The position numbers and the translations under genes are program-made. Positions 10,808-31,929 of a stretch of DNA of 33,787 bases are shown piece after piece. The notes beneath the pieces are model-generated. The model worked only from the letters and a program-made list of their open reading frames with translations, was not told where the DNA came from and did no database searches. This stretch comes from Atractiella rhizophila (Eukaryota), in assembly GCA_021432655.1 (NCBI GenBank), contig MU271664.1:1-33787 (forward strand), in the 5' to 3' direction. Numbering within the stretch: the stretch's first letter is position 1; every line of letters begins with the position of its first letter.

Positions 10808-11111
10808 TCATTGTGCGCGTGTTCTTGTTTCCTTTGCATGATGTTGTAGCATAGTCTGCAGAGTTGAGAGAATAAAAGTCAATAGCTGATGTTGCCCAAC
10901 TACTATTGATGCAGAACTCACACAATGAAATAGCGGGCTGTGCCAAATGTATTTTAAGTTCCTTTTCAAATGATTGTCAGCGCGCTAACCTTATTTCACC
11001 CGCCATATAACCCGTCCGCCCTTTTTCCAGCCGTTTTTCCCCCCACTTTTCCGTCCACTTATTCACGCCAGCAGCTATTATTCTCCTTTGATCAACGTAC
11101 CGATAGCAGTC

Positions 11112-12672
11112 ATGGCAGGGTACGATTCAACTGATGAAATCAGACAAGCTCTTCTCGCTGCTGCGGCAGTGGCGGAACAGACCCAACGAGAAAACCAAGA
11201 CCAGCCGCCAGAGTCTCACAATATCCCAGTCGGCAACATCGACGACAACATCGAGCCCAGCCTTCAAGAGCAAGGTGCTGAACCTACCCAGCAGGAGATG
11301 AGGCAAGGGGAGGTGGATGCGGCACCTCCGGTGTCACAACAAGAGCCTGAGCCTGGTGTTTATCGTGAGATTCCTGGAGAGATTTATTTGAGCCATCCTG
11401 ACCAGTCTGTGAACTTCCTACATAAGTATGTTCTTCATTCTCAATTCTTTCACAATATCCGATGTTAAGAATCGTAGGCGAGAACCGAGCGAAGAGGCTG
11501 GAGTGCAAATGCGACCGACTCTAGTAAAGTCTGTTAAACTTCATTTCCAGCGATGAGTTGAGCTGACGACGTTGACAGGAGACCAGTGAAAGTAGCTTGT
11601 TGTACGTTGTACGCTATCTTCCGCGTTACTTCTCTCATCTAAGATTGAGCAGCAACATGTAATAAACGAAAGGTGCGCCGTTTGTGTTTAAGCGGAACAT
11701 GTCGCTGATTTATTGCTTCAGAGAGCTTGTAAATCTACCACAGACCGTGACTACCCTTGCGTCCTCTGTATCTCATTAGGTATGCCGGACTCATGCGAGT
11801 ATGTGTTCCCCTTTTGTTCCTCACCTAGATGCCGACATTGACAAGAGGGCGCTCTCTGCAGACCATTTCGGCGCAACAGGTTCGAGTGTTTCTCGCTTCA
11901 ATATGGAGGACAAAACTGATATTTTGCTGGATCGATCAAGCCCTAGGGGTCCCAAAGCATCGATGGCGTGCCGTGCGTGTCCTTTTAGCTCATCGCTTGA
12001 AGTTTACGCGACGTGTCTGGAGCAGTTCGATGTCGTTCTCTTAAGGTATAACTTTGGTCATCTCCTCTAACCAAAGTATTAAATTTCAAAACAGCAAAAA
12101 TGCCCTCCTATGGCAGAAGGCGAGTCAGTTTGTGCCAGATGTCGCGATGCCGGAGCCCCTTGCGCGTGAGCACCATCAATCCCCGCCAATACTCTGAAGG
12201 AGGCTGACCAATGATGGACAGAATGGGAGAAGATCGACGAAGACGCACCGACTTGTCGGGTCCAAGAAGGAATCAACTGTCGAGATTGTATAAGACCGTG
12301 CAACAACCGGATTCGGACGTGCAGACATTTGAAGGAACGAGCGACATAGTCAATTCGATGGAGAGTGGAAATGAGCACGGAGGCGAAACAGACATTCCCG
12401 TTCATTTCCCTCCTTCTGATCATGATAACGACCTACGAGTGGAACCTTCAACAAACGGCGAGCATGTTATTGGGAACGAAAATATTGACATTGATATTCA
12501 AATCGATCCGGCTCTCTCAGGCGCTTCTATCCCAGTTGAAGAGGAGGGAAGTGGCACAAGTGGGAGGGAGAGAGACGGCCAAAGCATAGAGCTGCAACCG
12601 CAGCATTTAGTCGGTACAGCCCCAACTATCCCGCCTAGGTTAACACCGGTGGAGAGAGTTCACTTCAAGTGA
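11112..12672 (+). CDS. Zn(II)2Cys6 transcription factor with two tandem zinc clusters
   Basis: About 10 exons. Cluster 1 is C-ST-C-NKRKRA-C-KSTTDRDYP-C-VL-C-ISLGMPDS-C and cluster 2 is C-LR-C-RSLKQK-C-PPMAEGESV-C-AR-C-RDAGAP-C. 20-nt microexons at 11653-11672 and 12026-12045. Acidic, low-complexity termini, with IDPAL in the tail. Confidence 0.85.
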
Positions 12673-12944
12673 GAGAGTGGCAAGGTTGGGGTTTTCATGT
12701 GTGCTGAAGTGTGTTTCACGTTCAATACTTGGATTTTAGTTAGGTTATGAAATGGCTATAAGTTCTGTGGATTTGATTAGGACTCTGCCCTACCCTACAA
12801 AACGTCACCTTGCCAACACCCTGGAATAACAAACCGTGTCTTTGTTCTTCATAACGACCATGGCAATATTAATACTCCGACGTCAATACCACTCTTCCAA
12901 CCTTATTTTACCAACGCAGAACAGATTTCTGTCTCTGCATCGCC

Positions 12945-14091
12945 ATGACAGGGTGAGCCGTTTTATCCATCCACTGCTAGTGCCTTAAAATCACTCGTCT
13001 ACCGTTGCTGCATATCAATGCAATGAAGCCATTCATCCCCCAATGCTCCTTTCAACTAGCAAACTACCCTCTAAACCTCGCCTGCGCTCTCTTTACAGAT
13101 GCGGTACGTCGATTCTATTGATTCCCCAAATTGTTGTGATATCACCTAATGGAATATTTTCTTTTGTAGTTGAGTGCCGAAGGCAGCGTGTAGGTATTCT
13201 TCGTTTTGGTTCGCCTCGAGATCATGACACTGATTGTTGGGACACAGAAGAAGTGTGTCTACAATGAAGAAGAAGGGACTTGTGAGCGCTGCCAGGCATC
13301 TGGCGCGAGCTGCGTGTTTGTCTGCCTTCTATTTTCTCTGGCACCTTTTTACGCCTGTGTCTAAATGCAGGATCGTTCGCACTAATGGGAGGTGGAAACG
13401 CTGGCATCCTGACGAGGAGCCTGCGGTACGGCGACTCCTTCCGCCTACGGCTGGGACGCAAGAGCCTGTCCCTCTTCCAGACGAGGCACTTTATACTGTA
13501 TCAGTGCCAGAGGACGTGGGAACGACTTATTCTCCTGGGAACCATGAGATTCGACCACTTTTTAAAACAGAGACACCGACGGCCATCCCTGACAGTCATG
13601 AGTGGCGCCAAAGAGACAACCAATCTTCGCCCTCGTTTGCTTATTCACAGAACCAGGACTTCGATGTTGAAAGGGACCGCAACATTTTCTCTCCAACTCC
13701 AACACCCACACCTCTGTTAGAGCCGATGCCAACACCCCGTTCACAACCGGGAGAATGGCAACTCCAAACCGGTTGGCATCTACATTCCCGGCGCAACTTG
13801 TTTGATCCCACACCTTCAGTTTCTCCTTCAGTTTCTTCTCTAGACCTACGGTCCCAGTTGGATAGGATGACGAGTCCTCCACCAAATCGGAACGCTTTCT
13901 CTCCCACACCAACGCCGTCAATCTGCAGCGAAGCGAATATAAAGGACAACGAAAGTCGTGGAGACCACACGGGCAGTCGCGCTAGTCAAGCATTATTGCC
14001 TTCTTTTACTAATTTCCACCTTAGTCGCGAGGCTAGGAATATATTCGACCCACCGTTAGTCGATGATGAGATATTGTCCAGAAATGACTGA
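12945..14091 (+). CDS. Zn(II)2Cys6 transcription factor with a single cluster and a Pro/Ser/Thr-rich tail
   Basis: Introns 13104-13169, 13190-13247 and 13316-13370 give C-VE-C-RRQRKK-C-VYNEEEGT-C-ER-C-QASGAS-C, joining the last long exon in frame. The start is either ATG 12945 (via intron 12953-13059) or ATG 13043. Confidence 0.8.
13678..14055 (+). repeat. Four dispersed peptide motifs R-N-x-F-[S/D]-P
   Basis: RNIFSPTPTPTP at 13678, RNLFDPTPSVSP at 13792, RNAFSPTPTPS at 13888 and RNIFDPP at 14035. Confidence 0.8.
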
Positions 14092-14455
14092 GAACTCTGT
14101 GTATTAAGATGGTCTGATTCTTGGATAGGCATAGATTGCATTTGCTTGCACATTACATTGTCAATGAAGGCTTTGCATTGTGGTGTAGAACGGAAGAGCT
14201 ACTGTTACGATCTTTGCTTGTGGCGCAGCCCAAGTAGGACTGACAGTTTCATGCTGGATGTACAGAGTGCATTGTCTTTGACTGGTGAACCGGCTTTATG
14301 GTACCTCTATAAGATTCGATTTACTGCGTCAACGAAAGTGTAAACTTTCCGTCAACTCCACCTCGCCTAATAACTCGCACACATTGAACCCCCTCGTAGC
14401 ACCTACCCCAATACCCAATAGGCAGTGGCAGGGAGGATTAGCAAGATAACTGAAA

Positions 14456-17400
14456 ATGAGCACAAAATCGCTCGACTCCATTCTACTCGACCTCAAATCG
14501 CGATCAGACGGCGTGCGAGCGACTGCTGGTGAGGAATTAAGGCATTATGTATGTATATCTTTTTTGCCTCATCGCAATGGGTCTGTTTCTTATCATCTCC
14601 AACTTGGGAAGGTCTTGAGCTCTAGCCGAGTATTGCTTGGCCCTGCCTTTGAGAAGACATTCTCTGTCCTCTCTTCACGTCTTTTTGCCCTTGTCAACTC
14701 TACCGACCTTCCGGACAAGCTTGCAGGGGTATGCGCCATCGAAGCTCTGCTTCCATTACTTTCCGCATCAACCTCTAGCTCGAGATTACCACGATTAGCG
14801 AGCTATGTTCAGCAAGCGCTTCCATGTCCCGACGCACTCGTCATGTCGACAGCCGCTAGGGTGTTTGCAAAGTTGTCACGGATGGGAGGGAGTAGTATGA
14901 GCGAGATGGTGTCAAACTACGTCAAAGATTGCGTTCTCTGGCTCACGTCCGAGCGTGTAGAGATGCGTAGGTACGCTGCTTGCCTCATCTTGCGCGAATT
15001 AGCTCGAGAGAGTGTGTCTGGGGGCACGTCCGGGGCTTTGGTGAGCATGGGGGAGAGCGTAGCGGAACTTGCAGAGGTTCTCTGGAATGGATTAAGGGAC
15101 CAGAAAGTTGCGGTGAGAGAAGCAGCGGCGGATGCGATGGGGCAGGTCTTGAGGATTTGTTGGGTACGGGACGGTGAAGAGGGGGAGGCGTTCAGAGGAA
15201 CATGGGAAAATGTGCAGAAGGGTATGTTCTTCCTCTTCTGTGATCTTCGGTAGAGGAGTCTTGGTGCCGCAAGCGCTGACGCTCGGATTCGGTAGGATTG
15301 ACGCAGAGCAATCCGGACGTTATCCACGGCTCGTTACTCGCGTTGAAAGAGCTGCTGATCCAGGCGGGTCGGGTTGGTCTCTTTCTGTTCCACACCTCGC
15401 ACTTTGTTCAATCGCCTTGCTGGGGACCAGTTTCTAGCACCTCATTTCGACGCCGTCTGCACCCTCATCGTTACCTACAAAGATTCCAAAGAGACCCTTG
15501 TACGCCGCGCTACGATTGAGATGATGCCAGGGCTGGCTTCATTCGAGCCCGTACACTTTGCCAAAACCTGGCTGCATCGCTTTTTGGTGCACTTGCTTGG
15601 ATCGATTGGAAGAGGAAACGACAGGGGAATCTGTGAGCATTTCTCCCAATGAAGTGGGCGATTGGCTGAGCGCTTGATGGCGTATAGCTTTCTTGGCTAT
15701 TGGACACATCGCCACATACGTTAAATCTGACATCAAGCCCTTCCTTGACGGCATCCTTTCCGCTCTCAAAGAAGCATTAGCCTCCTCCCTTCGAGCCGCG
15801 GTCGGAGGCGGACACCATCTCCCTCAACCTCTGTTAACAGAATTTGGGCTCGGTGCTACGCCGCCTCCCTCGAAAGACGACAAAAAGAGCAGGAAAGGTG
15901 CTCCAACAGCCAGCACCGGAGGAGGAACGGGAGAGGCGCAGATTTTCGAATGCATTGCGTTGCTCACACAGGCTGTTGGCGTGGTTTTGACGAAGCATAT
16001 GCCGGAGCTCCTGGACGCAATGTTTGCGTTTGGACTGAGTGAAGCGCTTCGGAAGACTTTGGTGGGGATCGCCAAGTGGGATCCCCCCATTGCACCAGTG
16101 GTGAAAGGTCCGTGGTACTCCCTCTATCGAACGAAAACTAAAATCGTGCGAATAGAGAGGCTACTCAATCTATGTTCGGTCACTCTGACCGGAGAATCCT
16201 TTAAAGCACCAGGGGAAGGGCGTATAAGATGGACTCCGCTACTTGTGCGTTTATTCACTTCTCTGTAATGACGAACGGAGCTAATGCGGATGATTCTGTG
16301 AATATGAAGATGCAAGAACGAGATCCGGAACTCATTTCTCTCGCTCTTCAGACTTTAGGGACGTTTGACTTCACCGGTATGTTCTACTGCTGTCACTTTC
16401 CCTTCATGCCGCAAGTACTGAAGTGCAACGCGAAGGGTACAATCTTTCAGAATTCGTGCGAGACGTCATCGTTGCCTTTTTAGAGGACGACTCCTCTTCC
16501 ATACGCCGTTCCGCTGCCGACTCTGCTTGTGCATTATTATGCCACGATCCCATTGTGAAACGGAATGATTTGGCAGCCATCAAACTTGTGAGGGAGGTCC
16601 TGCAGAAGGTCCTTACTGTGGCAATTGCAGATCCGGGTGAGTGCTTATGAAGCAAGATTCGCTGCATCCCATTGTGCCTGTCAATGCGACAATCTTTGCT
16701 GATACTGTTAATCGGGCCGACAGACCCAACTATTCGTCTCAATACCCTCCTCGCCCTCGAACCTCCCGTAGATCGACATCTCGCCTCGCAAGATAATGTG
16801 AGGAGCCTTTTCGTTGCGGTCAGTGACGAGAACTTCCAAATCCGAGAGCAAGCGGTTCTTGTACTTGGGCGACTGGCTGGCCACAATCCCGCATATGTCA
16901 TGCCCTTCCTGAGACAGACGATCCTCGGACTATTAAGCGAAATTGAGTGGAACGATGCGCCGTATTTCTTTCCTAATTGATGTGGACTTGACTGATACAG
17001 TTGCCGAGGATAGGAGAGGAAAAGAAGAGGCCGCCAATCTGCTTGCCCTCATCGTTCGCACATCTCAGCGCCTTACACGTCCCTACGTCCTCTCCATTAC
17101 GAAAGTCCTCCTTCCAAAAGCACGAGATTCAAACCCACATCTTACAACTGCTATTATTACCGCGTTAGGAGAATTAGCTGAAGTCGGAGGCCGGGACATG
17201 CAGCCGCAGATCGGTCCTTTCATGGATCTTCTGATAGATACCCTGCAAGCACAAAACATCACACCTGAGAAACGGTTCGCGTCTTTGAAGGCATTGGGAC
17301 AGCTAGCTGGCAACGCCGGTTACGTTATCGAGCCATTTTTGGAATACAAGGCCCTACTTCCTACCTTGAGATCGATATTGGTCAACGAGGCAGGAAGTGG

Positions 17401-20400
17401 GGGACCTGCGACCAGGAGGGAAGTGGTAAAAGTCCTGGGGATTCTTGGAGCTTTGGATCCCTACAAACTGAACGTAAGCTATTGTTTCCCCGAAATTGGC
17501 GAGTTGTTGAGGCCGATTAGGTGGGAGACGAGCGCGAATCTACTGAGCTTACAGTGGGAACGGCTGAGACCCTTCTACTGGCGAATATCGGGCCATCGCA
17601 TGAGGATTATTACCCTACAATCACTTTCGCCGCCCTTCTTTCTATCTTGAGGGACTCTGGATTGTCAAATCATCATACTGCAGTGGTGGAGGCTATTATG
17701 TATATTTTCAAGAGCTTGAGGCTGAAGTGTGTACAGTTCCTCAAAGAGGTTCGCTTACATCATTACTTCGCCCCGTGACCTGTCTTGCTGAACCTATTAC
17801 CAGGTTGTGCCAGCAGTAGTTGGCGCGGTCAGAACATCCCCTGCGGCTCTTCATGCTACCTACGTGGAAAATCTCAGCAAACTCATCGATATCTCAAAGC
17901 AACATGTTAGAGTCCACATCTCTCCAGTACTTTCCCTCATTCAGGAATTCTGGGACACTTCATCTCTCCAACCTTGCCTTGTCTCCCTCATGGAATCCAT
18001 CGCAAATGCTCTCGATACCGACTTTCGAGCTCATCTTCCGACCCTGCTCCCTCTCCTTCTGTCCACTTTCAACAATGATCTAACTCGGCAGAACAAATCT
18101 GAAATTGCTATTCGTATTCTTAAGGCTTTTGTCGTATTTGGACAGAACTTCCAGGAATATATTCATCTCGCATTACCAACCGTCATACAGGTTTTCGAGA
18201 AGCAGGACCATTCGACGCCCCTTCGAAAGGCTGCTATCTCGGCCATAACGAATCTATCACGAAAGGTTAACTTTTCGGCACTCGCTTCGAGAACAATACT
18301 CCCCCTCGTCCGTGTCCTTGAGGTGCAAAATTCAGAATTAAGGACATCGGCAATGGATGCGCTCTGTTCGTTGATGGTTCAAATGGGGCCAGATTTCGCT
18401 CTTTTCATCCCAGCAATCAATAAGGTCAGCTTGCGTCCCTGGTCCAGCTGACATGACGCTGATTGTTTCAACTAGGCAACCGTTAAATATTCTATACGCC
18501 ATCAAAGCTATGAGGCAAATGCTGATGCACTCTTACGAGGCCTGGATCTTCCGATCACTATGTTTGGAGAGGAGTATGTTTCATAGTTCTCCCCAATAGG
18601 CTTCTAATAACTTCTCACTAGCTTGTCCCTACCAGTCGACAGTAACCATGCGGTGGACGCAGGAATTACGAAGCTTCCAGTTAACCAGCAGAACGTTAAA
18701 AGCGCGTGGGAGATACCGGAAAGAGCTCGAGCCGACGATTGGAAAGAATGGCTCAAGCGACTCAGTATTCAACTCCTGAAGTCTTCACCCTCCCACTGTC
18801 TTCGAGCGTGCGCCAACCTTGCAGAGGTTTACAATCCTTTGGCAAGAGAGTTGTTTAATGCCGCTTTTGTGTCTTGTTGGGGAGAACTTTACGACTCATA
18901 CAAGGTCTATCTCCTCTCTACAAACAGATCAAAGAACCTTCTGACATTTGGATTAGGACGAATTTGTATCCGCCATCGAGAGCGCGCTCTCCGCATCATC
19001 CATGCCTTCAGAGATTATGCACACACTTCTAAACCTCGCCGAGTTTATGGAGCACGATGATAAAGTCCTTCCCATCGACTGGAAAACGCTTGGAGCGTAT
19101 GCTCAAAAATGCCATGCATGGGCAAAAGCCCTGCACTATAAGGAGCTGGAATGCATCAAGGAGCCGACATCCGAAATAGTCGAGGATCTTATCTACATCA
19201 ATAGCGCTCTTCAGCAACCCGATGTTGCCATGGGAATTCTCACCAACACACAACAAAATCGGGATATTCCACTACACGAAGAGTGGTATGAAAAGTTGGA
19301 GAGATGGGAAGATGCCTTGGCCTCTTATGAACGTAGGTCGATGGAGGATCCAGGATCCTTCGAGCTAGTACACGGCCGGATGAGGTGTTTGGCGGCGCTA
19401 GGACATTGGGAGGCACTGTCTGATCTTGCAGATGACTACTGGCTCCCAACAACTCCCAACGATTTGAAGAGGAAGATTGCCCCACTCGCCGCTGCCGCTG
19501 CCTGGAGTCTCTCTATGTGGGATAGAATGGACGAGTTCGTCAGCGTCTTGCGAAGCGACTCTCCCGACCGTGCGTGGCTTAAAGCGATCCTTCACGTCCA
19601 TCGGCAAGAATACACAGAGGCGGAGAAGCAAGTTGGTAAAGCTAGGGACGGCATGGTTTCTGAGCTTGCATCCCTGCTGGGTGAAAGCTACAGTCGGGCT
19701 TATGGGTACATTCCCGCTTTCACAACATCATATGAATGGCTGACTCTTGCCACAGTTCCGTGGTTCGGGCACAAATGTTGTCGGAAATCGAAGAAATCAT
19801 AGCTTACAAGCAAGCTGTCGGTGCAGATCAACGGGACCGTCAAGAACACATCAAAGAAACATGGTCAAAGCGGTATGCCAATATTTACCTCCAAAATAAC
19901 AAACCTGACATGTGCCCCAGGCTGTTAGGATGCCAGCGTGACGTTGACACTTGGCGAAAGATACTCCGGCTTAGGGCAGCAGTTTTGTCCCCTAAAGACA
20001 ACATTGACATTACAATCAAAATGGCTAATCTCTGCCGCAAGGCTGGTCGTATGGGTCTCGCCGATCAAACATTTCAAAACTTCGTAGAAGACGATTTGGA
20101 TGATATTGTAACTATCCTCCATCCCACAGCTCTCTCTGACTGTTTGTAGACTGAGCTGCCACCAGAAGTTCACTATGCGCGATTGAAATACACGTGGGCT
20201 TTGGGGACGAAAGAAGAGACCCTTACTCAGCTGCGAGAGTTTACCACAAATCTCACTCATCAACTTGGACTTGCTGAAGACAGCCCTGCCGGGCCTGGAG
20301 TGAATGAACGCTACGAGCAATATCGTCGTCTCCTCAGTCGTTGCTACTATCGCATCGGAGAGTGGCAATCTTCTTTCTTGCAGGATTGGGGCTCAGTGAG

Positions 20401-23311
20401 TATTTGTTCGCATGAAATCAGGTCCTAATTACCGAGGCAGGAACAAGTTGAAAACATATTAGCTAGCTATTTACTAGCTTCCACATTGGACTCTGGCTGG
20501 GCAAAGGCGTACCATAGCTTTGCATTGGCTAACTCGGACGTCATCAGCTATTATTCCAAAATGGCAGATGAAGGAGAACCCATGCCTGAGGACATTTTTG
20601 CGAATCACTTAGTCCCTGCTTTACATGGTTTGTACTCAATTTTTCCTTCCTTCGCCACTCAGGGTAGAATAGCTTTCTTCAAAACGATTTCCTTGTCTCA
20701 AGGCACCGCGTTGCAAGACACCCTCCGACTTCTTACTCTCTGGTTCAAGTATGGTGATCACAAAGAAGTAGCTGGAGCCATAGCTGAGGGATATTCATCT
20801 GTTTCCATCGACACTTGGTTAGAAGTTGTGCCTCAGGTCGGCTCATATTCCATTTTTAATACACTCTAACGGCACTCTCTAGCTCATAGCTCGGATACAA
20901 GCGAAGAGTGGGCCGACTCGGAAGCTGGTGCAGCTCGTATTGACTGAAGTCGGAAAAGCGCATCCACAAGCTCTAGTGTACCCCGTAAGTCTTAAAGACT
21001 CAAAGTTATCGAGGCTAACAACTCTACAGTTAACTGTCGCTTCGAAGTATCCTAGTCAGTCGAGACGGAAGTCAGCTCTGACAATCCTAGACAAGTTGCG
21101 AGAACACAGTCCCAATTTAGTCACCCAAGCATTAGTGGTCAGTTCTGAATTAATACGCGTCGCTATCCTATGGCCCGAAATGTGGCATGAAGATCTCGAG
21201 GATGCTTCCCGTCTCTATTACACGGAGCACAATATTACCGGCATGTTCGACGTTTTGGAGCCTCTACATATGATGCTGGACAAAGTGGGCCTTGAACCCT
21301 TCGTTGTCATCCGTCATTGATGATTTTAAAGGGAGCGGAAACACAACGAGAACATGCCTTCGTCCAAACATACGGTAGAGATCTGCAGGCGGCGAGAACC
21401 TCTTGTGAACGTTATCAACAGTACAAAGAGGTCAACGATCTCAATCAGGCTTGGGATCTATACTACAACGTTTGTGAATTCCTTTGGTTGTTAAGAACAA
21501 TCATCAACACATCTTGCAGGTGTTCCGCAGAATCTATAGAGATCTAGCGAAAATGACCGTGTTGGACCTTCAAAACGTTTCCCCCAAGTTATTGCAACAA
21601 AGAGATCTTCAATTAGCCATCCCAGGTATGCGCTCTCCTATGCTAACTTTCCATCCATTTCACCAACAGAGTTTTCAGGGACATATCAAAGTGGCAAAGA
21701 GGTCATTTCTATCAAACGATTTGCTACCACTTTCGATGTACTGCAATCTAAGCAACATCCCCGAAAGATGAAGATCACGGGGAGCGATGGCAAGGATTAT
21801 GCCTTCTTATTGAAAGGTAGGCCGTGTCTCCATGTGTAATATTCCCCTGCCAGAATCCTTGATTAGGGCACGAGGACCTACGACAGGACGAGAGGGTGAT
21901 GCAACTCTTCGGCCTCGTCAACACGCTTCTGGTTAAGGATTCTGAAGCCTTCAAGAGACATCTCAGTGTTCAAAATTACCCAGTCATTCCACTCTCACCA
22001 AATTCAGGTTTGATCGGATGGGTTGACAACACAGATACCTTCCACATTTTAGTTCGAGTACGCACTGTTTGATCCTGAATCGTCTAGCTGAATACGGTCT
22101 AGAATTATAGAGAAAGCCGAAAGGTTCTGCTCAACATCGAACACCGACTCATGCTCCAGGTGTGTTGCTTCACTTCATTCAATTGTCCCATCTCTGATCC
22201 TGCTTGCAGATGGCTCCTGATTACGATCAGATGCACCTGATGCAGAAGATAGAGGTTTTTGAATTTGCATTGGAGAACACAACAGGGCAAGATCTCTATT
22301 GGGTACTGTGGCTGAAGAGCCGAAACTCAGAGTCCTGGCTCGTTCGACGAAGTAATTACGTTCGCTCTTTGGCGACAATGTCGATGGTGGGGCATATATT
22401 GGGACTTGGCGATCGTCATCCGGCCAATTTGTTGATGGATCGTATAACGGGACGCATTGTTCATGTCGATTTCGGCGATTGCTTTGAAGTCGCCATGAGA
22501 CGAGATGTGGGTTTCTCACTGACACTGATCCCCCCTTTGCTGACTCCGTTTGAAGAAATACCCGGAGAAAGTCCCATTTCGCTTGACCAGAATGCTTGTT
22601 CATGCTATGGAGGTCAGTGGAGTAGAGGGAACGTTTACGAGTCAGTCCACCGTCGCCTGACGATGCTAACTAACATCATTTGTGCAAGTTAACTCTGGAA
22701 TCGCGATGCAAGTGATGAGAGACAACCAGGAGTCGATTCTTGCAGTGCTAGAAGCATTCGTTTACGATCCACTTATTAACTGGCGCCTTGTTACTGGTGT
22801 GTCCTTACACCTGCCGTCCATAGCGAACCTGATTCTGTATGTTGGTTAAGGCGGACGTCGCGTTGGCAGTGAAGATGTAGATGAGCCCGAAGATTCTGCA
22901 GCACAGGCACCTGCCCAAAGTAGGCCATACACCAAAGGACGACCGCGTGTGGATGAAGCGAACACCATGGATGGTTTGTCTTTCGTTCTCTTCCCATGAG
23001 AAGAATGCTTATACCTCAGCAGAGGAGGCTGCAGAGCAGTTGAATGCGCGAGCTTTGGAGGTTGTTGATCGCATTAATCAAAAGCTGACAGGTGCCTCTA
23101 TTGTTCACATCGCATTGAGGAGCTAATGCCTCCTTTAGGACGAGATTTCAAGCCTACGGAGGCTCTACAAGTGTCCGATCAGGTCAAAAAGCTTATCAAT
23201 CAGGCGACGAGCTACGAAAATCTTTGTGTCATGTTTGGTGGATGGTGCCCATTTTGTACGTTTTTACCTTTTCTTTTCGGCGACGCTGACGAGAAGAGTG
23301 CAATAGGGTAA
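14456..23311 (+). CDS. TOR1: Serine/threonine kinase TOR (PIKK family)
   Basis: About 33 GT-AG introns. HEAT repeats, FAT ([21 protein letters not shown]), FRB ([22 protein letters not shown]...[13 protein letters not shown]), kinase ([36 protein letters not shown]) and FATC ([19 protein letters not shown]). Confidence 0.98.
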
Positions 23312-23528
23312 ACATGTTGTATTCACATTGCTTTTCAGTTTCCCAAGATCAAGTTGTACTGTGCAACAATGTAGTTCATACGCAACCAAACAATGGAGTA
23401 GTTTCATCGTCATCAACAGACGTCGACAATCGGCAGAATGTGGTGTTTCTTCACATGCATACGCCGCCTCAAAGAGTCGATGCTCCGAAGTTACAAATTT
23501 TACAACAAAGCTTCCACAAGCGAGCCGA

Positions 23529-24302
23529 TTACTTCTTCCAGGCAATATCGACAACTGTCCTTCCGTCAACACCTCTTCCTTCAATTCGACGAGAGTCAGC
23601 TCACCATCCTCCAATAGGGGTTCTGCAATATATTCTCTCCCCTCCTTCTTCCTCCTCCAATCACTCCCGAATCGCTCATCCCGCTCGCCCACTACCTTCT
23701 CGAACTCTTTCATTTGCCCTGCGCCTGTAAAACTTCCCATCAAGACCGGTTGTCCCATCGGTAACTGATCACCTCTATCGACCTGCCAGAAATGATACGT
23801 CTTTCCGTAAAGCTTCACGACCTGCTCCATCTCCTTCTTCTCTGCCGCTTCCCAAGCTATTGCCGGCAGAAGGGATGTAGAGGGTTGTGGCATAATAAGC
23901 ATTCCGGATTTCACTTCAAATACGTGTGTGTGCCACAGCTTCCTCTCTTCGGATGAGAGGGTGCTGAAAAGGCGTGGGGTGACCATGTATTCAACTCCTA
24001 TGAGACGTGCATTCGGAGCGGTGGAATCGTAGATTAGACACTGCCTGACATCTGCCAATCACTTTTCTTCAACATCCGAGTTGATCCTCCAGCGCAAGGG
24101 AACTCGACGCACCGTCATTCACATGAGCGCAATAGTGATTTGCCTCTACGAAACGATGTGGCTCATCAGCGTAAACATGAAAGGCGTTCAAGTGAGCGCA
24201 GATGCTCTTTACTGGATGAAAATCTTGCACAACTGCTGCTCCGGAAGTGAGCAGTTGGTTAGTGGTGCTGAGGGGTGCCCCTGGAATCGACTCCGAAGCC
24301 AT
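23529..24302 (-). CDS. DUF1264 / oil-body-associated protein (OBAP)-like protein
   Basis: Spliced product has [11 protein letters not shown]...[22 protein letters not shown]...ARLIGVEYM...[17 protein letters not shown]...[19 protein letters not shown]. Intron 24052-24112; a second intron precedes a short last exon encoding VVDIAWKK* (stop 23529-23531). Confidence 0.9.
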
Positions 24303-26327
24303 GAACGTAGCTGTTGCAATAGAACGGACGAAGGCAAAAGATGACGTGGTCTGGCGTGTTATATCCTTCTTTTATGATATGCGTCACATTACGCCCTGCA
24401 TTTACTGAAATAAAGCTTGGCATGGGCAGAACCTTCCACAGCTCGATAAATGCACAAGATCTCCTTTCCGACAGTGCACAGTGGCCTGCAGGTGGTTTGC
24501 AGGACAAGGGATCTAAGGGAATGCCGATGTAAGTTATGCCATGTCTCCTTGGATGATCCTTGTGAGAACTGCAAGATACGGCAATCTGCTCATAAACATC
24601 AATGCACTTCTTCCCCAAGCATTTAAGACAATGTTCATGCTGACAGCAAGTAGATAGTAGAGGTCCCCACTGAGGGAACATGAGCTGCAGGGACGCCACT
24701 GGGAGCGAGGAGGGTTGAAGTTGACAGTTGACAGCTCAGGCCTCAGGTTAGAACCGTGGCCTTTGAAACCAAACAGCATGAAGAGAGGTAAGACACAATA
24801 GAACTTCTCGCAAACATATCTGTTGGCACATCGACGCTCACCATCCCAATGCCAGACGACTAAGAATCTCACAATGCAATGCAGACTTATCGATATCCCC
24901 AATTACTCTTGGAAGTGCCTTGCAGTCCCACCCCTTAATAATCCGTATTCTCCCTTGGACCGAATCGAGGACAAATTCCAAGGTTACTTGTGGAGGATAC
25001 ATGTACATGTAACCGTTTCTGACAGTTTGGCCCTAACCCAAATTAAAACACCAATTGTGGAACAAACATGTAATAACCAGCACTATCACAATCTGGTTTA
25101 AAAGCTTGATCAGACATCCTCCAGAAGACGTGCCCTAGCAGGAAGGAGAAGACGTAGGAGAATGAAATCTCTGTGCTTCTTCGTTTTTCGCAGGGATCAT
25201 GCGAGTACCCTTAAAAGGCGTACCTTACATCTTCGAGCCTCTGGTCTTCCGTTGTCGCTGCCAAAAGTGCTGCCCCAACTGAGAAGTCTGGGTAGTTGAG
25301 AATCTCGTGATGTGATGTCGTTTGCTCCGCAGCAAGTCGCATTTTAGATCCTTTTCCCGACAATTACTCGCGCATTACAATGCCTTCCAAAGCCAATTAA
25401 TGCGCGACTGATAGAGTAGGTATCTGACTTAATATCCCGCCAAAATAGTAGGAATGGACGACCTACGTGTAACAATGAAAGAAGAGCTAATGCTCGAATT
25501 TTTATGAGACATTCAAGCTGGCTCTCTTCTCTTCCTCATAAATAAATAACACTAGCAAAAAAAATGCAAAGATGGGAGAAGTGCTTGACACCTGAATAAG
25601 AGAGAGTTCCATCCTCACATTCACAGAGGAAGAAGGACAGGCCAAGACTTATTGAGTCACGCATGCATTTCGAATCCTGCATATCTTCGTCTCTAGTGCT
25701 GGACAATTCCTGATCGATGTAGATGTTTGCTAATCTTCTACGACGTGCAGTACGGAAGCCGTAACAAAGAGCACCTGGTACTAGACCAGAAACTGCTGCA
25801 ACAGAACGCTCTGCCAAAATGACCTTGTGTCTCGCCCATCGATCGTACCACAATCTCTGGTACTCCTTAGATGCCCTTGTTGAGCTCAAGCGTCGCTATA
25901 AGAATCCCATATAAGCTGAAGTCTGATCTGCTGGCGATGAGCAGCCCCTCAGTCGCGTCAACACCCAACAGCGGCATTTCCCCCCTGTTCAACTCCCCTA
26001 GACGGCCATTTATCTCAATTCGCTCTTCTTTACCTCACCCATACCAATACTGACACATTATGCCCGCTGGCTGCTACAGAGAGCAAATAGAGTAACACAG
26101 GAGAGACTTATAACGGTGCGGCACGTGACGGCAACAACTTCTTATCCGCTCGCAAACTCTCGCTCGAACCTCCTCAAACCACCACGATCTCCCCTTGATA
26201 ACTTCATTCACCTCGAATACGTTAAAAAAATAAATATCAAAAACTAGGTATACCTGTTTCGACTAGATATCGAGAAAAAGTGGGATATTAGACACCTTCT
26301 TTTCCGCATCGATATTCTAGGGTAAAC

Positions 26328-29300
26328 ATGCCCCCCTTGTCTTCAAATATGAAGACGACTTCTTCAGCTCCTACACTGGGCTACACACTTTACCTTCCTC
26401 AACCTGGCGCTCCAAAACGCACAGCATCATCGGAGGGTGGAACAATCAATCCAGCTACCTCAGCCGCAGATGGCGCCACCACGGACAAGGAACCACCCAC
26501 CACGGTCGGTGGGCCTCACCCTGACGAAGGCATAGTTGCATCTCATGGGAAGCTTTTGGTCAAAGAGTCCATTCCTTCTGAAGGGAAAGGAGACTTCGAG
26601 AAGGAAGGAACTGGAAAGAGGACTACAACAGGTGCGTAGACATCCTTTCAAAAATAAATGGTTGACTTTCGAACCACAATTGCAGGCACTACATTGCCCA
26701 CGAAACAGCCTCGACAGTTGACTCCAGGTATCGATAATACCTGCGGAATCTCTGATTCTCAGATAAATGCTCCAAACCTACCGTCTACCACCTTACCGCT
26801 ACGAGGTCAACCCCATTCTGCTTCCGCTTTGCCATCGATACCTACGGAGTTGCATTTACCCCGGATTCCGATTGTGAGACCAGTTACTGATGAAGGAGAG
26901 GAGCACAGCGAGCTTGGCAGAAATGACGAAACTGGAAATAGGAAAAGGAAAAGGGGGGTTATTGTTCAATCGAACCCTGAAAGGAACTTGGGAAGCAAAT
27001 TAGGTGAGTATCGGACATTTTGTTGTGGAGTGGGATGGTTGAGCAATGTCGTGTTAGTCGCATCCCTTCAGTCCCCACGTCCCGACGATCAATCTCCGAA
27101 AGATACCCCCGATTCAACAAACAGATATGATTTTACCTGCTCCTGCGGTATGTGTATTCCCTATCAACTTAGTTTGCAGAAGCTCAAGCGGTTTTCTGCT
27201 TATAGTGGAATGCAGGAAGATCAAGGTTGGACTTTTTTCACAAAATAAACCATGAGCTCACAATCTCGCATAGATGAAATGCGAAAAGGAGACGGGAAAC
27301 CCTTGCGAACGTTGTGTGAAGAAAGGAATCGAATGCTTGTACGTTGTTCCCCCTCTCGCTTCGCTTTGAACCGAACCAATCGGACTTGGTAGGCCCCCGT
27401 TGAACACAAAGTCATGCAAACTGAAATGCCGTACGTCACCTCCTTCAAATGCGATCCATATTGATGTTTCCCGCCAATAGAACGCTGTAAAGAGCGAAAC
27501 GTTCGTCCATTCCTCTCAGTTCTAGCATGATGATGAAGAGCTTTTTGGTCAGTTTGTTTGCCTGCGGAAAGACGAAAACACTGCATGTGGTCGCTGCCAA
27601 AAAGATAATAAGGATTGCTTGTGGGTAGCCACTAACTTCAAATGAGTCATGTACTGACATAAGTTAGGGCGAGGACTGATGGAAGAAAGAAGGTGGGGTT
27701 GAGAAGAGCGCGACGCAGAACGTCCGTACTTGTCTCATTAATCTGCGATAGCAAATTCACGAAGTATGGGCTACAGGCTTGATATAGTCGATTCAACCGA
27801 AGAAAGTGCTGCTCCTTCTCCCTATTCTCCCGTTGTCCGAGCGCAACCTATCGCATGTCATGTTGAACCTCCTAGCATACAGACTCAGTCTGATTCTGCG
27901 AAATGCTCAATCCAGCCAATTCAAAAGGACCAAGGAACTCGTCAAATCGCTCCGCTGCCGCGACGATCAACTCATTCCACCACGACCCGGTATCCTTGCG
28001 TACCGCACATTTCGTCTGACTACCTTAGCCAAGGCTCATCCGAATGTCAACCTGCCTTAGACTCTACCACTGTCGCCAACCAGTCGCTATCACCCCGTCT
28101 CGCTTTCATCGAGAGTGAAGTATCGACATTCCTGGACGAACACATTGGTGCTGGTTTTGCGACAGGGACCTCACAGCCTCAGTTATGTCTGAAAGATGCA
28201 AATAATGCGATTAGCAGCAGGCCCGGTCATCTCTTCCAATTTTCGAACACCGCGAACTTGTCTGCAGCAGCACCATACACGAACTACTATAGCCAAACCA
28301 CAGTGCCTGATGGACCCATCTCAGTCCAGACTGCTGTCGCTGATCCATGGTTACAATCCGATCAGACGAAGGATTCTCTCTCAGGATTCCTCAGCAAACC
28401 CATTGGCGCTGGTTATGTGGCAGGGACCTCACGGCCTCAGTTAGTACTAGAAGATGTGAACGACTCTAAGTCCAGCACGCCTCATCCTCTCTTGCAAGCG
28501 TCTAGCGTTACGAACTTGCTCCCCATGGAACACATCTCGTCCTTCAAATACAGAAGGCAAGACTCAACCGTCGATCGACCTACCTCAGCCCATGCCGCTG
28601 TCGTTGACCCGTCACCAACATTCCGTCTCGCTCTGATCGAAAATGAAGTATCGGCATTCCTAGACCAACACATAGGTCCTGGTTTTGCGGCAGGGACCTC
28701 GTTGCCTCAGTTAAGGCTAGAAGACGCAAATGATACGATTAGCAGCAAACCTTATGCTCTCCCTCAATTGTCGAGCACCTCGAACTTGCTTGCTGCAGTA
28801 CCACACACTTCGTCCTCTAAGTGCCTTAGCCAAGCGGCGGGTCAACTCAGCTTCGCTGATCCCACACTGCAACTCGATCAGAGCGAGATCGACAGTTTTT
28901 TCTCAGCATTGGGCAACCCACCAGTGGAAGTTGACTTTGCTGCAGCAACACAGTCAGGACCAGGACCAGAAGATACGAATGCTACTGTGTGCACCAATCC
29001 CAGTTCGCTCCCACAACCGTCTGTCACTGCGACCTTCCCTCTTGTTCCTATCACATCACAGGCAGCTCCCGACTACCCTAGTCAAACCTTCGCGGATTAT
29101 CATCCCCTCTTGGCCGCTCCAATCCCCGCTCTCTCGTTGCAAGATCTCGACGGTATCTTCTCGTTTTCCCAGGACCCATCTGTCGATGCTAGCTTTCTAC
29201 CAGCAACGTCACCATCTCTGCAGGCAGAAGTCAGAAACATCGCTGATCCCCTGAAAGATCTTTCTGCTTTCTTGAAGCTTTGGTCGATGCCGACTTCGCA

Positions 29301-29622
29301 GCCACTCCCCTGTTCGAAATCCAGTTCTCTAGACGGATGCACAACCTGGTTTCGGGAGTTCGAAAAAGGGAGATGGGAAGCTTATAACTGGCAGTCACGG
29401 GCTCTCATTGAAGGCGAATGCGCATACGGCCCCTTTCGTCTCCTAAATTGGCTCAAGACCAAGGATCATGTGCATTCAAACGATGCAGGGATGTTCAGCC
29501 CTAGTTATTTGCCTGCCATGGAAGTTTGGATTCGTCCCACCGACAACGAGCATCAATACGAGTTATTACCTTTCAAACCTTTGGGGAAATCCCAGCCGTT
29601 CATTTTGGAAGCTTGTCTGTAG
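26328..29622 (+). CDS. Large Zn(II)2Cys6 protein with two tandem clusters, internal repeats and an unknown C-terminal domain
   Basis: Introns include 26632-26685, 27004-27057, 27148-27205 and 27722-27776. Cluster 1 is C-VE-C-RKIKMK-C-EKETGNP-C-ER-C-VKKGIE-C and cluster 2 is C-QR-C-KERNFV-C-LRKDENTA-C-GR-C-QKDNKD-C. Microexons at 27206-27225 and 27481-27500. NLS-like RKRKR before the clusters. The junction to the last large exon is plausible but less certain. Confidence 0.8.
28090..29040 (+). repeat. Degenerate tandem repeat, ~86-90 aa (~260-270 nt) unit, 3 clear copies plus weaker ones
   Basis: CAGGGACCTC recurs at 28163, 28421 and 28691. The peptide FL..[HP]IG.G[FY].[AT]GTS.PQL.L[KE]D.N...SS.P..L.Q.S...NL occurs three times. 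Copies 1 and 3 (offset 528 nt) are clearly alignable at DNA level. Confidence 0.9.
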
Positions 29623-29761: not shown

Positions 29762-31929
29762 TCAAACCAGGCACTTAACGTCTCCTTCCAACATAGCGAG
29801 TGTAGCTCCCAAGCTCCATCCCAACTCGACTCCATCGACCTGCTTCCCGACCAAAAGCTCCCGAGTGTCATCCAGCTCCCATCCGACCTCAAGCAGTCCA
29901 ATCATCCACCCCAGATCCAAACACCACTCCGGTCTTCCTCTCATCTCCTCCTCCAACTCCGCACCGTCGAGCCAAGTTCCCCAACTCTTCGGACCCTCAC
30001 AGACATCCCTAGCCATCGACTTCAACTCTCCCAGCGATATAGTTCCCCAAGAAGCGGAGGTGTGAAGAAGGGGTAGGATCCTATCTGTGAAGTACGACAA
30101 AGCCCAGAGCGGTCCCGAAAAGTGGGCATTCATAAGCGGCTGCCACACACCGCCAAAGCTACACGGTGGGAGAGTGCAAAGCTGATCCTTGCCGACCGCA
30201 AGGTTGACCAGTCGACGACAGGCTTCGTAAGGCTTGTTCCCCTCCGGTCCGTAAAAGGTCACTTCCTTCTTCTCCCGATCCTTTGGATCCAGCATGACCT
30301 TCTTCTCACTTCCGGGGTAGAAGCAAGGATGTGGTATCCGCGTATCCGACTTCAAGTCGTCCCAAGCCATAGGAGTTTTTGTGCGCAGGGAGGACCAGAG
30401 GGTTGTATGGACCAGGAGGTTATGAATGGTTCGACGGGCCTCCATAAGGCCATAGCCTAGGTGGGAGTGCTGGTAGAGGAGGTAGGACTCGGGAGAAAAG
30501 GTGAGGTTGTAGATGTGAGTCGGCGGAAGTTCGAGAGAAGGATCGAGGGAATGAGGAGAGAAAACGGTTTGAAGAGATGCGCCACCTAAATCGATGATAC
30601 CAGCTGTGTGACTCTTTGATGTACTGGATGCCGGTCCGATGAGGGAAGAGAGGTAGTTTAGTGTTATCCAACTGTATACGCCTTTTCCAATCAAGTCAAC
30701 ATTTTATTTGAAACCTCCATAGACTCAACGTTGACGGAAGAGAAAGGGGAACGGAACTGTAAACGTGTTCCACGAGACAGCCTTTTAATATGGTTTGCTC
30801 TAGATCGCTAATGCCACGGCTAATACATCGCCACCTCGAACCTGGCGCACCGTTCTCATTGACTACATGCTTTCCTCCACCAGGGTGAGCAGAAAAAATA
30901 GCACACAAAGAAAAAAAGCATTCAACCTGTTGTGGCATCTAAATTCATTGACAACACCGCTGTGCGCAACTTTGACGCTGATAAGTGAAATTGAGAAATA
31001 TGCACGACACTCCTTCGCTCTCGCCAGAAGAAGGTAGCCAGTCATGAAGATCAAAGGTGCTGCAACGAATAAGTTCAGAAACAGCAATAAAGTCAAGCAA
31101 TAATCCAGAATTTCGATCTAACTGCAAACTCCCGTCCCTTTATCAAATAAAAAGACGCACCTTCATCGCTGCCATCCATAATCTCCACAGTTGGCGCACC
31201 CTCTTTCGTTCCGGTCAACGGGAACCCATAACTTCTCTCAATCAATCCCTCGACCTCTCTCAAAATGGCGTCCGCCTCTCTCTCGCCCAGCAATCTCAGA
31301 CCAGCTGTCGCTTTAACAGAAATAGGACTGCACTTCCACTCGTCCTGAGGCACGCTCTCCTTCGCCTTCTCCAGCAGGGGAACGAGGGACAATGCTGCGT
31401 CTCGAGCGGTAGCGAAAGTAGAAGAGGAGAGACCGGGGTTTAGGGAGAGGAAGACTTCGTTGTCCAGCTTCAAAGACGGTGCGGAGGTTGACGATGGAGA
31501 TTGGCAGTAGAGGAACTTGTAGACGTGTATCCGACTGCCTGTGGACCCCGCATCGATCATCATCGCATACTGATGGCTCCTATGCGGCTTAGGAGGAGGA
31601 ACGCATAAGGCCTCCCCCTTACTCCCTCCCGCGCTCTTCCCACTCCCGCTTCCTGTGCCTGGAAAGTAGCCGTTTGGGTCAGAGACGGGGGAGGAGCCGT
31701 AGGAGAGGTAGAGGATGAGTATGAAGATGCCGAGGAAGGCGAGGAGCGTGCGGCGGGAGGAGAGCATGCCTTTCTTGTTGGCGTTGGGCGAGTTGGAGCT
31801 GGACGGCGGGAATGTCTGCGGGAGGGGGCTGAAGCGCTTGGAACTGGAGTTGGACGACGAAAACATGCTCGTGCGAGTTGGTGACGGCGCTGTGGTGGTC
31901 CGGGTCGAAGAGGATGAGCGACGGCGCAT
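29762..31929 (-). CDS. GDA1: Golgi guanosine-diphosphatase / apyrase (GDA1/CD39 family)
   Basis: N-terminal TM segment (LLAFLGIFILILYLSY) and all five apyrase conserved regions: IDAGSTGSRIH, ATAGLRLL, MDGSDEG|VYSW, DLGGASLQ and GWSLG. One intron, 30682-31160. Confidence 0.95.
30682..31160 (-). other. Unusually long (479 nt) GDA1 intron with several hairpins; candidate ncRNA host
   Basis: The GTGCGT donor and AAAAG acceptor rejoin ACR3 exactly (DEG-VYSW). About 8-9 times the local intron length. The intron itself is well supported; the ncRNA content is unproven. Confidence 0.8.

Follow-up and report, generated by a model that had tools for sequence, protein, structure and literature searches.

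In Gal4, the stretch between the second and third cysteine of the Zn2Cys6 cluster contacts DNA. Zn2C6 domains are widely lost from public gene models through introns and short exons, and the available parts of the CeGAL study (PMC10141177) and of a study of Aspergillus nidulans (PMC8396895) describe how introns together with very short 5′ exons drop or distort the domain, as at the locus described here. Most of the genes treated there come from ascomycetes and have a middle-homology domain, and neither common intron positions nor a 20-nt exon is reported in these parts. In Coprinopsis cinerea, approximately 9% of gene models have an internal exon of ≤15 nt; as in our case, the omission of microexons leads to premature stops and broken models, and certain gene families are enriched for them (PMC12230235, available part). 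That work names cytochrome P450 as such a family rather than zinc-cluster factors (its main text never uses the word "zinc"), and the 20-nt exons reported here exceed the 15-nt limit of that work. Both the annotation loss of the Zn2C6 domain and the commonness of microexons in basidiomycetes are already in print.

Two Zn2Cys6 domains within one protein are known from Bhr1 of Dichomitus squalens (PMC13532241) and PoZCP55 of Pleurotus ostreatus (PMC7295025). Like genes 1 and 3 of the present locus, these are basidiomycete proteins with two zinc clusters each; however, they possess partial septin domains and C-terminal clusters, whereas a septin part is absent from genes 1 and 3, in which the clusters sit N-terminally or centrally. 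Here, we analyzed a window of 33,787 nt of Atractiella rhizophila (contig MU271664.1), in which five Gal4-type Zn2Cys6 clusters are located in three neighboring genes, each split by introns at the identical three places. This five-cluster pattern is a good illustration of phenomena that are already known.

Five zinc clusters with a common exon layout

In all five clusters, a phase-1 intron lies 1 nt past the Cys1 codon, a phase-0 intron 6 nt ahead of the Cys3 codon, and a phase-2 intron 2 nt past the Cys6 codon, as an initial annotation made from the letters alone had proposed. Its five 20-nt exons (11653-72, 12026-45, 13170-89, 27206-25, and 27481-500) proved exact as well, each flanked by AG and GT and carrying TGY at positions 6-8. 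Spliced together, exon A, microexon, and exon C gave CSTCNKRKRAC...C for cluster 1, CLRCRSLKQKC...C for cluster 2, CVECRRQRKKC...C for cluster 3, CVECRKIKMKC...C for cluster 4, and CQRCKERNFVC...C for cluster 5. All five match CX2CX6CX7-9CX2CX6-8C and likewise the spacing applied for Zn_clus membership, CX2CX6CX5-12CX2CX6-8C.

The GT-AG introns that split the clusters measure 48-66 nt, and the clusters become visible only once these are removed; consistent with the earlier claim that no cluster is intact without splicing, the six frames of the window contain no unspliced Zn2Cys6 motif. A regular expression for the spliced motif found five matches on the plus strand and none on the minus strand of the window, and none on either strand of 200 windows simulated with a third-order Markov model; a narrower IUPAC pattern gave two matches vs none in 100 dinucleotide shuffles. 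With all five frames open, 30 of 30 cysteines present, and the simulations empty, we rejected a chance origin or pseudogenes. A half-motif scan of the window revealed no extra cluster with another exon structure; its sole additional match, 24498-24563, lacks the Cys1-Cys3 part and was discarded as a further cluster.

Against the gathering score of 21 bits for Pfam Zn_clus (PF00172), the public protein P0004, which holds cluster 2, reached 22.2 bits, and P0003 with a CX5 form of cluster 3 stayed below at 15.5 bits. Scored alone, exon C of cluster 4 came to 19.3 bits (under the same cut-off of 21), and that of clusters 1, 2, 3, and 5 gave no Zn_clus match. The best solved relative is Leu3 (PDB 2er8), with whose DNA-binding domain P0004 aligned at E 0.0011; 28 of the 30 nearest Atlas clusters were Zn_clus clusters. 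The likeness to the Gal4-type domain PF00172 and Leu3 2er8 consists in the six-cysteine spacing and the basic residues past Cys2, with three to five Lys/Arg counted in each of the Cys2-Cys3 stretches (NKRKRA, RSLKQK, RRQRKK, RKIKMK, KERNFV). In contrast to these, there is no recognizable dimerization coil here (no such Pfam family), and two of the three proteins have tandem clusters.

Neither the long exons of genes 1-3 nor the proteins P0001, P0003, and P0004 matched Fungal_trans (PF04082 or PF11951) up to E 10; the pair of Zn2C6 and middle-homology domain by which the available part of PMC10141177 characterizes the CeGAL family is not found in genes 1-3. All three proteins appear to be DNA-binding proteins of the Gal4 type (Zn2Cys6) that lack the middle-homology domain usual in fungi. 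Judging from the family, they most likely bind CGG-type half-sites, and in the two-cluster proteins, with clusters 12-16 residues apart, a single chain could contact two half-sites.

A protein search that used the part of P0004 around cluster 2 as query returned only P0004 itself. Scanning metagenomes with P0001 gave 73 pattern matches, none of them confirmed by tblastn. In a metagenome scan for the cassette itself (TGCG, donor, gap, 20-nt exon with TGY, gap, acceptor, TGY), chance matches dominated: the pattern hit at least 119 loci, and of the 119 listed, three passed the full spliced motif and none was a real cluster. Those three were all TG-rich low-complexity repeats and were dropped.

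Gene models, RNA contigs, and public proteins

The RNA evidence consists of contigs of one run, in which rare forms are dropped, with 15 of 57 joints listed; small shares (0.05-0.10) of three other RNA runs covered no cassette exon. The introns behind the 15 joints listed of 57 are 48-74 nt long, the same range as the cassette introns. The RNA check suggested by the initial annotation succeeded for all junctions of cluster 2 and for the flanks of clusters 1 and 3, whereas no junction of clusters 4 and 5, or of gene 3 as a whole, is among these 15 of 57 joints. The coordinates of all features are given in Table 1.

Table 1. Genes, exons, introns, and splice features in the window, with the evidence for each
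Feature	Position	Strand	Evidence or remark
Gene 1	11112-12672	+	Model: 10 exons, 358 aa, open end to end
Cluster 1 upstream phase-2 intron	11529-11578	+	RNA junction seen
Cluster 1 exon A (23 nt, Cys1)	11579-11601	+	Junction 11528>11579; contig aligned exactly 23 letters beyond
Cluster 1 phase-1 intron	11602-11652	+	Downstream of exon A; gene model
Cluster 1 20-nt microexon (Cys2 + four residues)	11653-11672	+	AG/GT flanks, spliced motif
Cluster 1 exon C (77 nt, Cys3-Cys6)	11722-11798	+	Spliced motif; RNA loose end
Cluster 1 phase-2 intron past Cys6	11799-11861	+	RNA loose end
Linker exon (18 nt), conditional on splicing of 11880-11940	11862-11879	+	Start RNA-shown, end predicted
Putative phase-2 intron (GTTCGA..AAG, 61 nt)	11880-11940	+	Predicted; splicing would give clusters 1 and 2 a common frame
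Cluster 2 exon A (32 nt, Cys1)	11941-11972	+	Junction 11972>12026
Cluster 2 20-nt microexon	12026-12045	+	Junction 11972>12026 (side 20); present in P0004
Cluster 2 exon C (71 nt)	12095-12165	+	Junction 12165>12222
Cluster 2 phase-2 intron past Cys6	12166-12221	+	Junction 12165>12222
Gene 2	13043-14091	+	Model: 289 aa from 4 exons, with a single N-terminal Zn2Cys6 cluster
Cluster 3 exon A	13043-13103	+	Gene 2 model
Cluster 3 20-nt microexon	13170-13189	+	AG/GT flanks, spliced product; included in P0003
Tandem acceptor CAGAAG	13245-13250	+	First AG gives canonical CX6, second AG gives CX5
Cluster 3 exon C	13248-13315	+	Gene 2 model
Gene 3	26328-29622	+	Model: 10 exons, 940 aa, open end to end
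Cluster 4 exon A (90 nt in model used; Cys1 at end)	27058-27147	+	Gene model
Cluster 4 20-nt microexon	27206-27225	+	AG/GT flanks, spliced motif, IUPAC pattern
Cluster 4 exon C (65 nt)	27274-27338	+	Spliced product; alone 19.3 bits Zn_clus, E 0.0013
Phase-2 intron past cluster 4 Cys6 = upstream intron of cluster 5	27339-27392	+	Gene 3 model
Cluster 5 exon A (38 nt)	27393-27430	+	Between phase-2 intron 27339-27392 and phase-1 intron 27431-27480
Cluster 5 20-nt microexon	27481-27500	+	AG/GT flanks, spliced motif
Cluster 5 exon C (68 nt)	27553-27620	+	Spliced product, gene model
Cluster 5 phase-2 intron past Cys6	27621-27667	+	Gene 3 model

The gene 1 model contains two tandem Zn2Cys6 clusters 16 residues apart, followed by an acidic tail. 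Its RNA junctions are 11425>11478, 11528>11579, 11972>12026, and 12165>12222, with loose ends at 11862 and 12045. Ahead of 11862, an RNA contig carries GGACTCATGCGA, the final 12 nt of cluster 1 exon C, and behind 12045 two RNA contigs carry CAAAAATGC, the start of cluster 2 exon C at 12095. Every junction of cluster 2 is shown by RNA contigs; neither junction of microexon 1 is among the 15 of 57 joints listed. The public model P0004 (203 aa), which we reproduced from coordinates, starts at ATG 11903 and comprises cluster 2 without cluster 1.

For gene 2, the public model P0003 (288 aa) equals our model with the acceptor at 13250, 3 nt downstream, which turns the spacing into CX5. An 810-nt RNA contig maps to 13371-14022 from its position 165; the piece starting at 13371 directly follows the intron behind Cys6 of cluster 3, and the 164 nt upstream equal 68+20+76 or 65+20+79. 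Against our reading stands a contig from a close relative, found in a root metatranscriptome, that is unspliced across 13316-13370. The gene 3 model, for which the splice path past cluster 5 was picked from enumerated paths, comprises an N-terminal region, a tandem pair of Zn2Cys6 clusters with 12 residues between them, a basic stretch, and a long tail with repeats. In the public model P0001 (766 aa) both clusters are missing and both microexons are skipped; it is identical over 730 of 766 residues to a model without both microexons, exon C of cluster 5, and a 54-nt exon.

Each of the three public models is wrong or doubtful at the DNA-binding domain, which agrees with the earlier expectation, not new in itself, that annotation misses this family. 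The tiny exons probably trip automatic annotation and thus leave the public proteins with a lacking or distorted domain. Three public A. rhizophila protein records can be corrected: two gain a cluster pair and one regains the canonical spacing, adding three predicted DNA-binding factors to the repertoire of this plant-root endophyte. The spliced-motif search offers a simple recipe to recover missed zinc-cluster domains in intron-rich fungi, and such recovery could explain part of the reported low family count in basidiomycetes.

Splicing between and within the clusters

The initial annotation counted three genes, a number that holds only if the putative intron 11880-11940 is spliced, and the junction 11879>11941 is absent among the 15 of 57 joints listed. 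Five in-frame donor/acceptor pairs are possible between clusters 1 and 2; with 11880-11940 retained, the frame stops at 11917-11919. Gene 1 might then encode no two-cluster protein at all, but a cluster-1 protein ending at that stop and a 203-aa cluster-2 protein from an internal start, a reading that we take seriously and consider the less probable one. It would explain why P0004 reads through the segment from a start inside it; the donor GTTCGA is weak and the acceptor is AAG, and 11879>11941 is missing from the joints listed even though the contig over 11862-11972 has a depth of 189.8 and rows of depth 66 are listed. However, the same RNA has exon C of cluster 1 spliced to 11862 and running into microexon 2, AAG acceptors are used by RNA-supported introns of the window, and the joints listed are 15 of 57. 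Under eukaryotic scanning, a reading frame downstream of one of ~180 codons is hardly translated, which speaks against a separate cluster-2 protein; cluster 2 is intact and correctly spliced and is thus presumably translated, and the tandem design is found in gene 3, too.

With introns of 47-66 nt, the spliceosome would be expected to recognize introns rather than exons, and a 20-nt exon should be no obstacle; we infer that the five microexons are ordinary constitutive exons. That regulated skipping of a 20-nt exon, as suggested in the initial annotation, or the choice of acceptor within CAGAAG of gene 2 serves as an off switch for the DNA-binding domain seems very improbable. Skipping any of the five microexons would truncate the protein 0-47 residues on, the tandem acceptor at 13245-13250 yields either CX6 or CX5, and RNA contigs stop exactly at exon boundaries (e.g., 11601), as expected with more than one continuation. 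Yet any exon that is not a multiple of three shifts the frame when skipped, which makes this effect unspecific. The 15 of 57 joints listed include no skipping junction, and microexon 2 appears exclusively in its included form in these contigs, in which rare isoforms are invisible. In Coprinopsis cinerea, one basidiomycete with long-read data, exon skipping makes up 0.5% and intron retention 67.5% of splicing events (PMC12230235, available part).

Origin of the common layout

We consider it likely that the three genes are intron-rich basidiomycete (Pucciniomycotina) Zn2Cys6 genes that inherited their layout from an ancestral zinc-cluster gene structure. The three intron positions (past Cys1, two codons ahead of Cys3, and past Cys6) would have been passed on from the ancestral gene and kept while coding sequence, introns, and the remaining gene parts diverged beyond recognition. 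Between the two flanking introns, the CX2CX6C spacing would be unchangeable and the exon always 20 nt. Conserved intron positions together with this fixed spacing dictate the length, and the "invariant 20 nt" of the initial annotation dissolves as a separate feature. Pairwise, the domains have 2-9 identities outside the cysteines and the cassette introns align no better than shuffled controls; this strong divergence of all five domains and their introns therefore indicates old inheritance and not recent copying. The pattern is a tidy yet largely ordinary case of inherited gene structure.

The initial annotation had also proposed a duplicable cassette. On this reading, the zinc-cluster module, bounded by phase-2 introns, would have been copied in tandem in genes 1 and 3 and inserted into otherwise unrelated genes, and the common layout would stem from module movement instead of whole-gene descent. 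An upstream phase-2 intron indeed exists in three clusters, and three of the five modules have phase 2 on both sides: cluster 1 (both introns RNA-seen), cluster 5, and cluster 2 (upstream intron predicted only). Their lengths of 120, 123, and 126 nt are multiples of three, and two genes have tandem clusters. Outside the module, nothing detectable is common to the three genes, the C-terminal parts being unrelated (BLASTP E 0.43 or worse), and protein searches with the tails found only A. rhizophila proteins besides two repetitive proteins, which we discounted. Fast-evolving disordered tails, however, would also erase the likeness of old whole-gene duplicates, and no sequence trace of copying was seen: clusters of the same gene are not the closest (three non-Cys identities each for clusters 1 and 2 and clusters 4 and 5 vs nine for clusters 3 and 4), and the introns have no residual similarity. 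Moreover, the upstream intron lies 6, 9, or 11 residues ahead of Cys1, not at a single homologous site; cluster 3 lacks it because its start codon sits 20 codons upstream, and in the model used for cluster 4 the nearest upstream intron is phase 1. We regard the cassette as unlikely and, as slightly less likely still, a true phase-2/phase-2 module that was tandem-copied and moved between unrelated genes to give single-chain double-cluster binders needing no dimerization; if true, exon shuffling would here have built fungal transcription factors, which is rarely documented.

Should the three intron positions turn out to be widespread in Basidiomycota, they could serve as useful markers to trace the history of introns in the largest fungal transcription-factor family. 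Our literature search found no paper on conserved intron positions or microexons in basidiomycete zinc-cluster genes. In Table S3 of the Pleurotus ostreatus family paper, which gives mean exon lengths only, 6 of 66 genes have three exons or fewer and therefore cannot hold all three introns. CTRAY branch-point-like motifs occurred in 7 of 15 RNA-supported introns vs 8 of 17 introns of the cassette genes and did not discriminate between them.

Exon layout and family assignment of the five clusters

All five Zn2Cys6 clusters, two in gene 1 (c1 and c2), one in gene 2 (c3) and two in gene 3 (c4 and c5), are encoded by the same succession of exons: exon A with Cys1, a 20-nt microexon with Cys2 and exon C with Cys3 to Cys6. 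The microexon positions proposed in the initial annotation are exact in all five cases, each with AG before it, GT after it and TGY at its positions 6–8. The three introns likewise lie where they had been placed in every cluster, i.e., one in phase 1, 1 nt past Cys1, one in phase 0, 6 nt before Cys3, and one in phase 2, 2 nt past Cys6, with lengths between 48 and 66 nt. Splicing an exon that ends 1 nt past a Cys codon to its microexon and then to the following exon yields five products fitting CX2CX6CX7-9CX2CX6-8C.

A regular expression for this spliced motif matched five times on the forward strand of the window and not at all on the reverse strand, and it found nothing on either strand of 200 simulated windows (third-order Markov model). 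A narrower IUPAC pattern gave two matches vs none in 100 dinucleotide shuffles. A chance origin of the five-cluster pattern is excluded by these controls. As had been stated for the open reading frames, there is no unspliced Zn2Cys6 motif in any frame of the window. A half-motif scan returned only the five known Cys3–Cys6 exons and one stray match (24498–24563); thus, the window is devoid of zinc clusters with another exon structure. The constancy of the 20 nt is a consequence of intron sites and motif and no additional finding, because the two introns keep their places relative to Cys1 and Cys3 and the motif allows no variation in the length between them.

The family assignment is best seen in c2 via P0004, the public protein model of gene 1, which passes the Pfam Zn_clus cut-off of 21 with 22.2 bits; c2 also aligns with the DNA-binding domain of Leu3 (PDB 2er8, E 0.0011). 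Among the 30 nearest Atlas clusters, 28 are Zn_clus clusters, and in the top three listed (156–268 aa) the domain occurs on 90–100% of the members. Exon C of c4 by itself reached 19.3 bits for Zn_clus. A middle-homology domain was found neither in the long exons of the three genes nor in their public models P0004, P0003 and P0001, and protein searches with the tails retrieved only A. rhizophila proteins, apart from two discounted repetitive proteins. The three genes add new members, with correctable models, to a known family.

Features of the window, with predicted gene structures and the microexons of the five clusters
Feature	Position	Strand	Details
Gene 1	11112–12672	+	358 aa from 10 exons with uninterrupted frame; two clusters, 16 residues apart
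Microexon of c1	11653–11672	+	20 nt
Microexon of c2	12026–12045	+	20 nt
Gene 2	13043–14091	+	289 aa from 4 exons with uninterrupted frame; one cluster from residue 20
Microexon of c3	13170–13189	+	20 nt
TOR-type kinase gene	14390–23100	+	HEAT, FAT and PI3/PI4-kinase domain matches between 14450 and 22692
DUF1264 gene	23264–24058	-	E 1e-57
Gene 3	26328–29622	+	940 aa from 10 exons with uninterrupted frame; two clusters, 12 residues apart
Microexon of c4	27206–27225	+	20 nt
Microexon of c5	27481–27500	+	20 nt
GDA1/CD39 nucleoside phosphatase gene	29762–31977	-	divided over two long frames
HMG-box gene	32594–33163	-	domain match

RNA evidence and public gene models

Sequencing run X6 contains 46% of the sampled words of 10900–14200, and we regard it as RNA because its contigs show GT..AG joints all along the TOR-type kinase gene, where many introns of about 50 nt are borne out by RNA contigs from up to three runs. 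The X6 junction evidence comprises 15 of 57 joints listed. In gene 1, X6 contigs contain the junctions 11425>11478, 11528>11579 (exactly 23 letters align past the joint, the length of c1 exon A), 11972>12026 (20 letters past the joint) and 12165>12222, together with a 12-letter loose end ahead of 11862 that equals the end of c1 exon C and, in two contigs, a 9-letter loose end past 12045 that equals the start of c2 exon C. RNA covers every junction of c2; for c1 it shows the donor boundary and the phase-2 introns on either side.

For c3, the intron following Cys6 was seen in RNA. An 810-nt X6 contig matches 13371–14022 from contig position 165, which leaves 164 letters for the upstream exons, divided as 68 + 20 + 76 or 65 + 20 + 79 nt. 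An ATG in another frame lies at 13023–13025, 20 nt upstream of the gene 2 start codon, and the inferred 5′ end of the contig (13025 or 13028) falls at or just past it. For c4 and c5, where depth was only 2.6–5.7, no joint was among the 15 of 57 listed, and runs X1, X2 and X4 (shares 0.05–0.10) left the cassette exons uncovered. A root-metatranscriptome contig from X4 (13310–13588, 5 differences in 279 nt) is unspliced through the gene 2 intron 13316–13370; the same run has spliced junctions in the TOR-type kinase gene. A close relative could have retained the intron here, or its DNA could have been carried over.

All three public models, each rebuilt from its coordinates, are faulty at the domain, which bears out the earlier suggestion that annotation misses it. 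P0001 (gene 3, a 766-aa hypothetical protein) shares 730 of 766 residues with a model joining 27147>27274 and 27430>27777; both microexons are skipped, exon C of c4 is out of frame and no cluster remains. Our own path from c5 to the long last exon of gene 3 is a prediction (introns 27621–27667 and 27722–27776), chosen among many in-frame options because its acceptor is the one used in P0001. P0003 (gene 2, 288 aa) includes its microexon and uses the second AG of the tandem acceptor CAGAAG (13245–13250) that ends the following intron. The first AG gives the canonical CX2CX6C, the second CX5 instead of CX6 and 15.5 bits for Zn_clus vs the cut-off of 21; the RNA contig is compatible with either.

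P0004 (203 aa) has the microexon of c2, begins at the ATG at 11903, inside the putative intron 11880–11940, and lacks c1 and all upstream sequence that is spliced on in the RNA contigs. Removal of this predicted intron would join c1 and c2 in one open frame, and four further in-frame donor/acceptor pairs could do the same. If the segment stayed in the RNA, the frame would stop at 11917–11919 and the two clusters would lie in separate proteins. The weak donor (GTTCGA) speaks for such retention, as does the absence of the intron among the 15 of 57 X6 joints listed despite a deep contig; we nevertheless consider retention rather unlikely. The gene 1 locus may encode the single two-cluster protein or two one-cluster products.

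Such loss of the domain from gene models has already been published. The CeGAL study took nearly 17,000 factors that seemed to lack a DNA-binding domain, recovered one upstream for at least 90% of them and gives as an example a missed exon two codons long (PMC10141177). In a survey of Aspergillus nidulans, about 30% of transcription factors were found to need correcting; zinc-cluster genes made up most of these, and intron retention was frequent (PMC8396895). For Coprinopsis cinerea, an internal exon of at most 15 nt is reported in about 9% of gene models, its omission usually creating a stop (PMC12230235).

Descent of the modules and effects of skipping

Besides the cysteines, c1 to c5 have only 2–9 residues in common pairwise. 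Alignments of their cassette introns do not surpass those of shuffled controls, and BLASTP shows no relationship between the tails of the three genes (E 0.43, 0.47 and 3.0). It follows that the duplications are old and that the intron sites were retained over a long period of divergence. Clusters of the same gene are not closest kin: c1–c2 and c4–c5 share 3 non-Cys residues each, vs 9 for c3–c4. The symmetric module flanked by phase-2 introns, as proposed, is real for three modules, but argues only weakly for shuffling, since the upstream intron lies 6, 9 or 11 residues ahead of Cys1 and two modules lack it. Two metagenome scans gave no usable match, and our literature search turned up no publication that deals with where introns lie in the zinc clusters of basidiomycetes. 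Given five strongly diverged modules in unrelated host genes, it appears more likely that the three intron sites represent an old pattern widely shared among basidiomycete zinc clusters. Two-cluster proteins, too, are already described from basidiomycetes (PMC13532241, PMC7295025).

With regard to the proposed off switch by microexon skipping, any of the five skips would truncate the protein within 0–47 residues. However, the same applies to every exon with a length not divisible by three, and no skipped form was seen among the 15 of 57 joints listed. Splicing events reported for Coprinopsis cinerea comprise 67.5% intron retention vs 0.5% exon skipping (PMC12230235). In gene 2, the intron after Cys1 (13104–13169) spans 66 nt, a number divisible by three, and contains no in-frame stop. 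Its retention would lengthen the protein from 289 to 311 aa, the 22 extra residues falling between Cys1 and Cys2, with no truncation.

The initial annotation is confirmed in its observation and supported in part in its interpretation. The three genes are examples of two known phenomena: intron positions passed on by descent, and gene models disrupted by microexons. A genome-wide look at the double-cluster design and at the module with its symmetric intron phases would be worthwhile; the locus is still no outlier.

Gene neighbourhood and the gene 3 repeat tail

The root-associated basidiomycete Atractiella belongs to the Pucciniomycotina. In the window, the large TOR-type kinase gene separates gene 2 from gene 3. 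At 28100–28800, the last exon of gene 3 has a repeat unit of about 30 residues in three copies, FL-D/S-x-x-IG-x-G-[FY]-[AV]-x-GTS-x-PQL-x-L-x-D-x-N-[DN]-x-x-SS, for which BigA_beta was the only family match, weak and below threshold. P0002, a 383-aa A. rhizophila protein encoded on another contig, is a partial copy, 95% identical to the second half of this tail.
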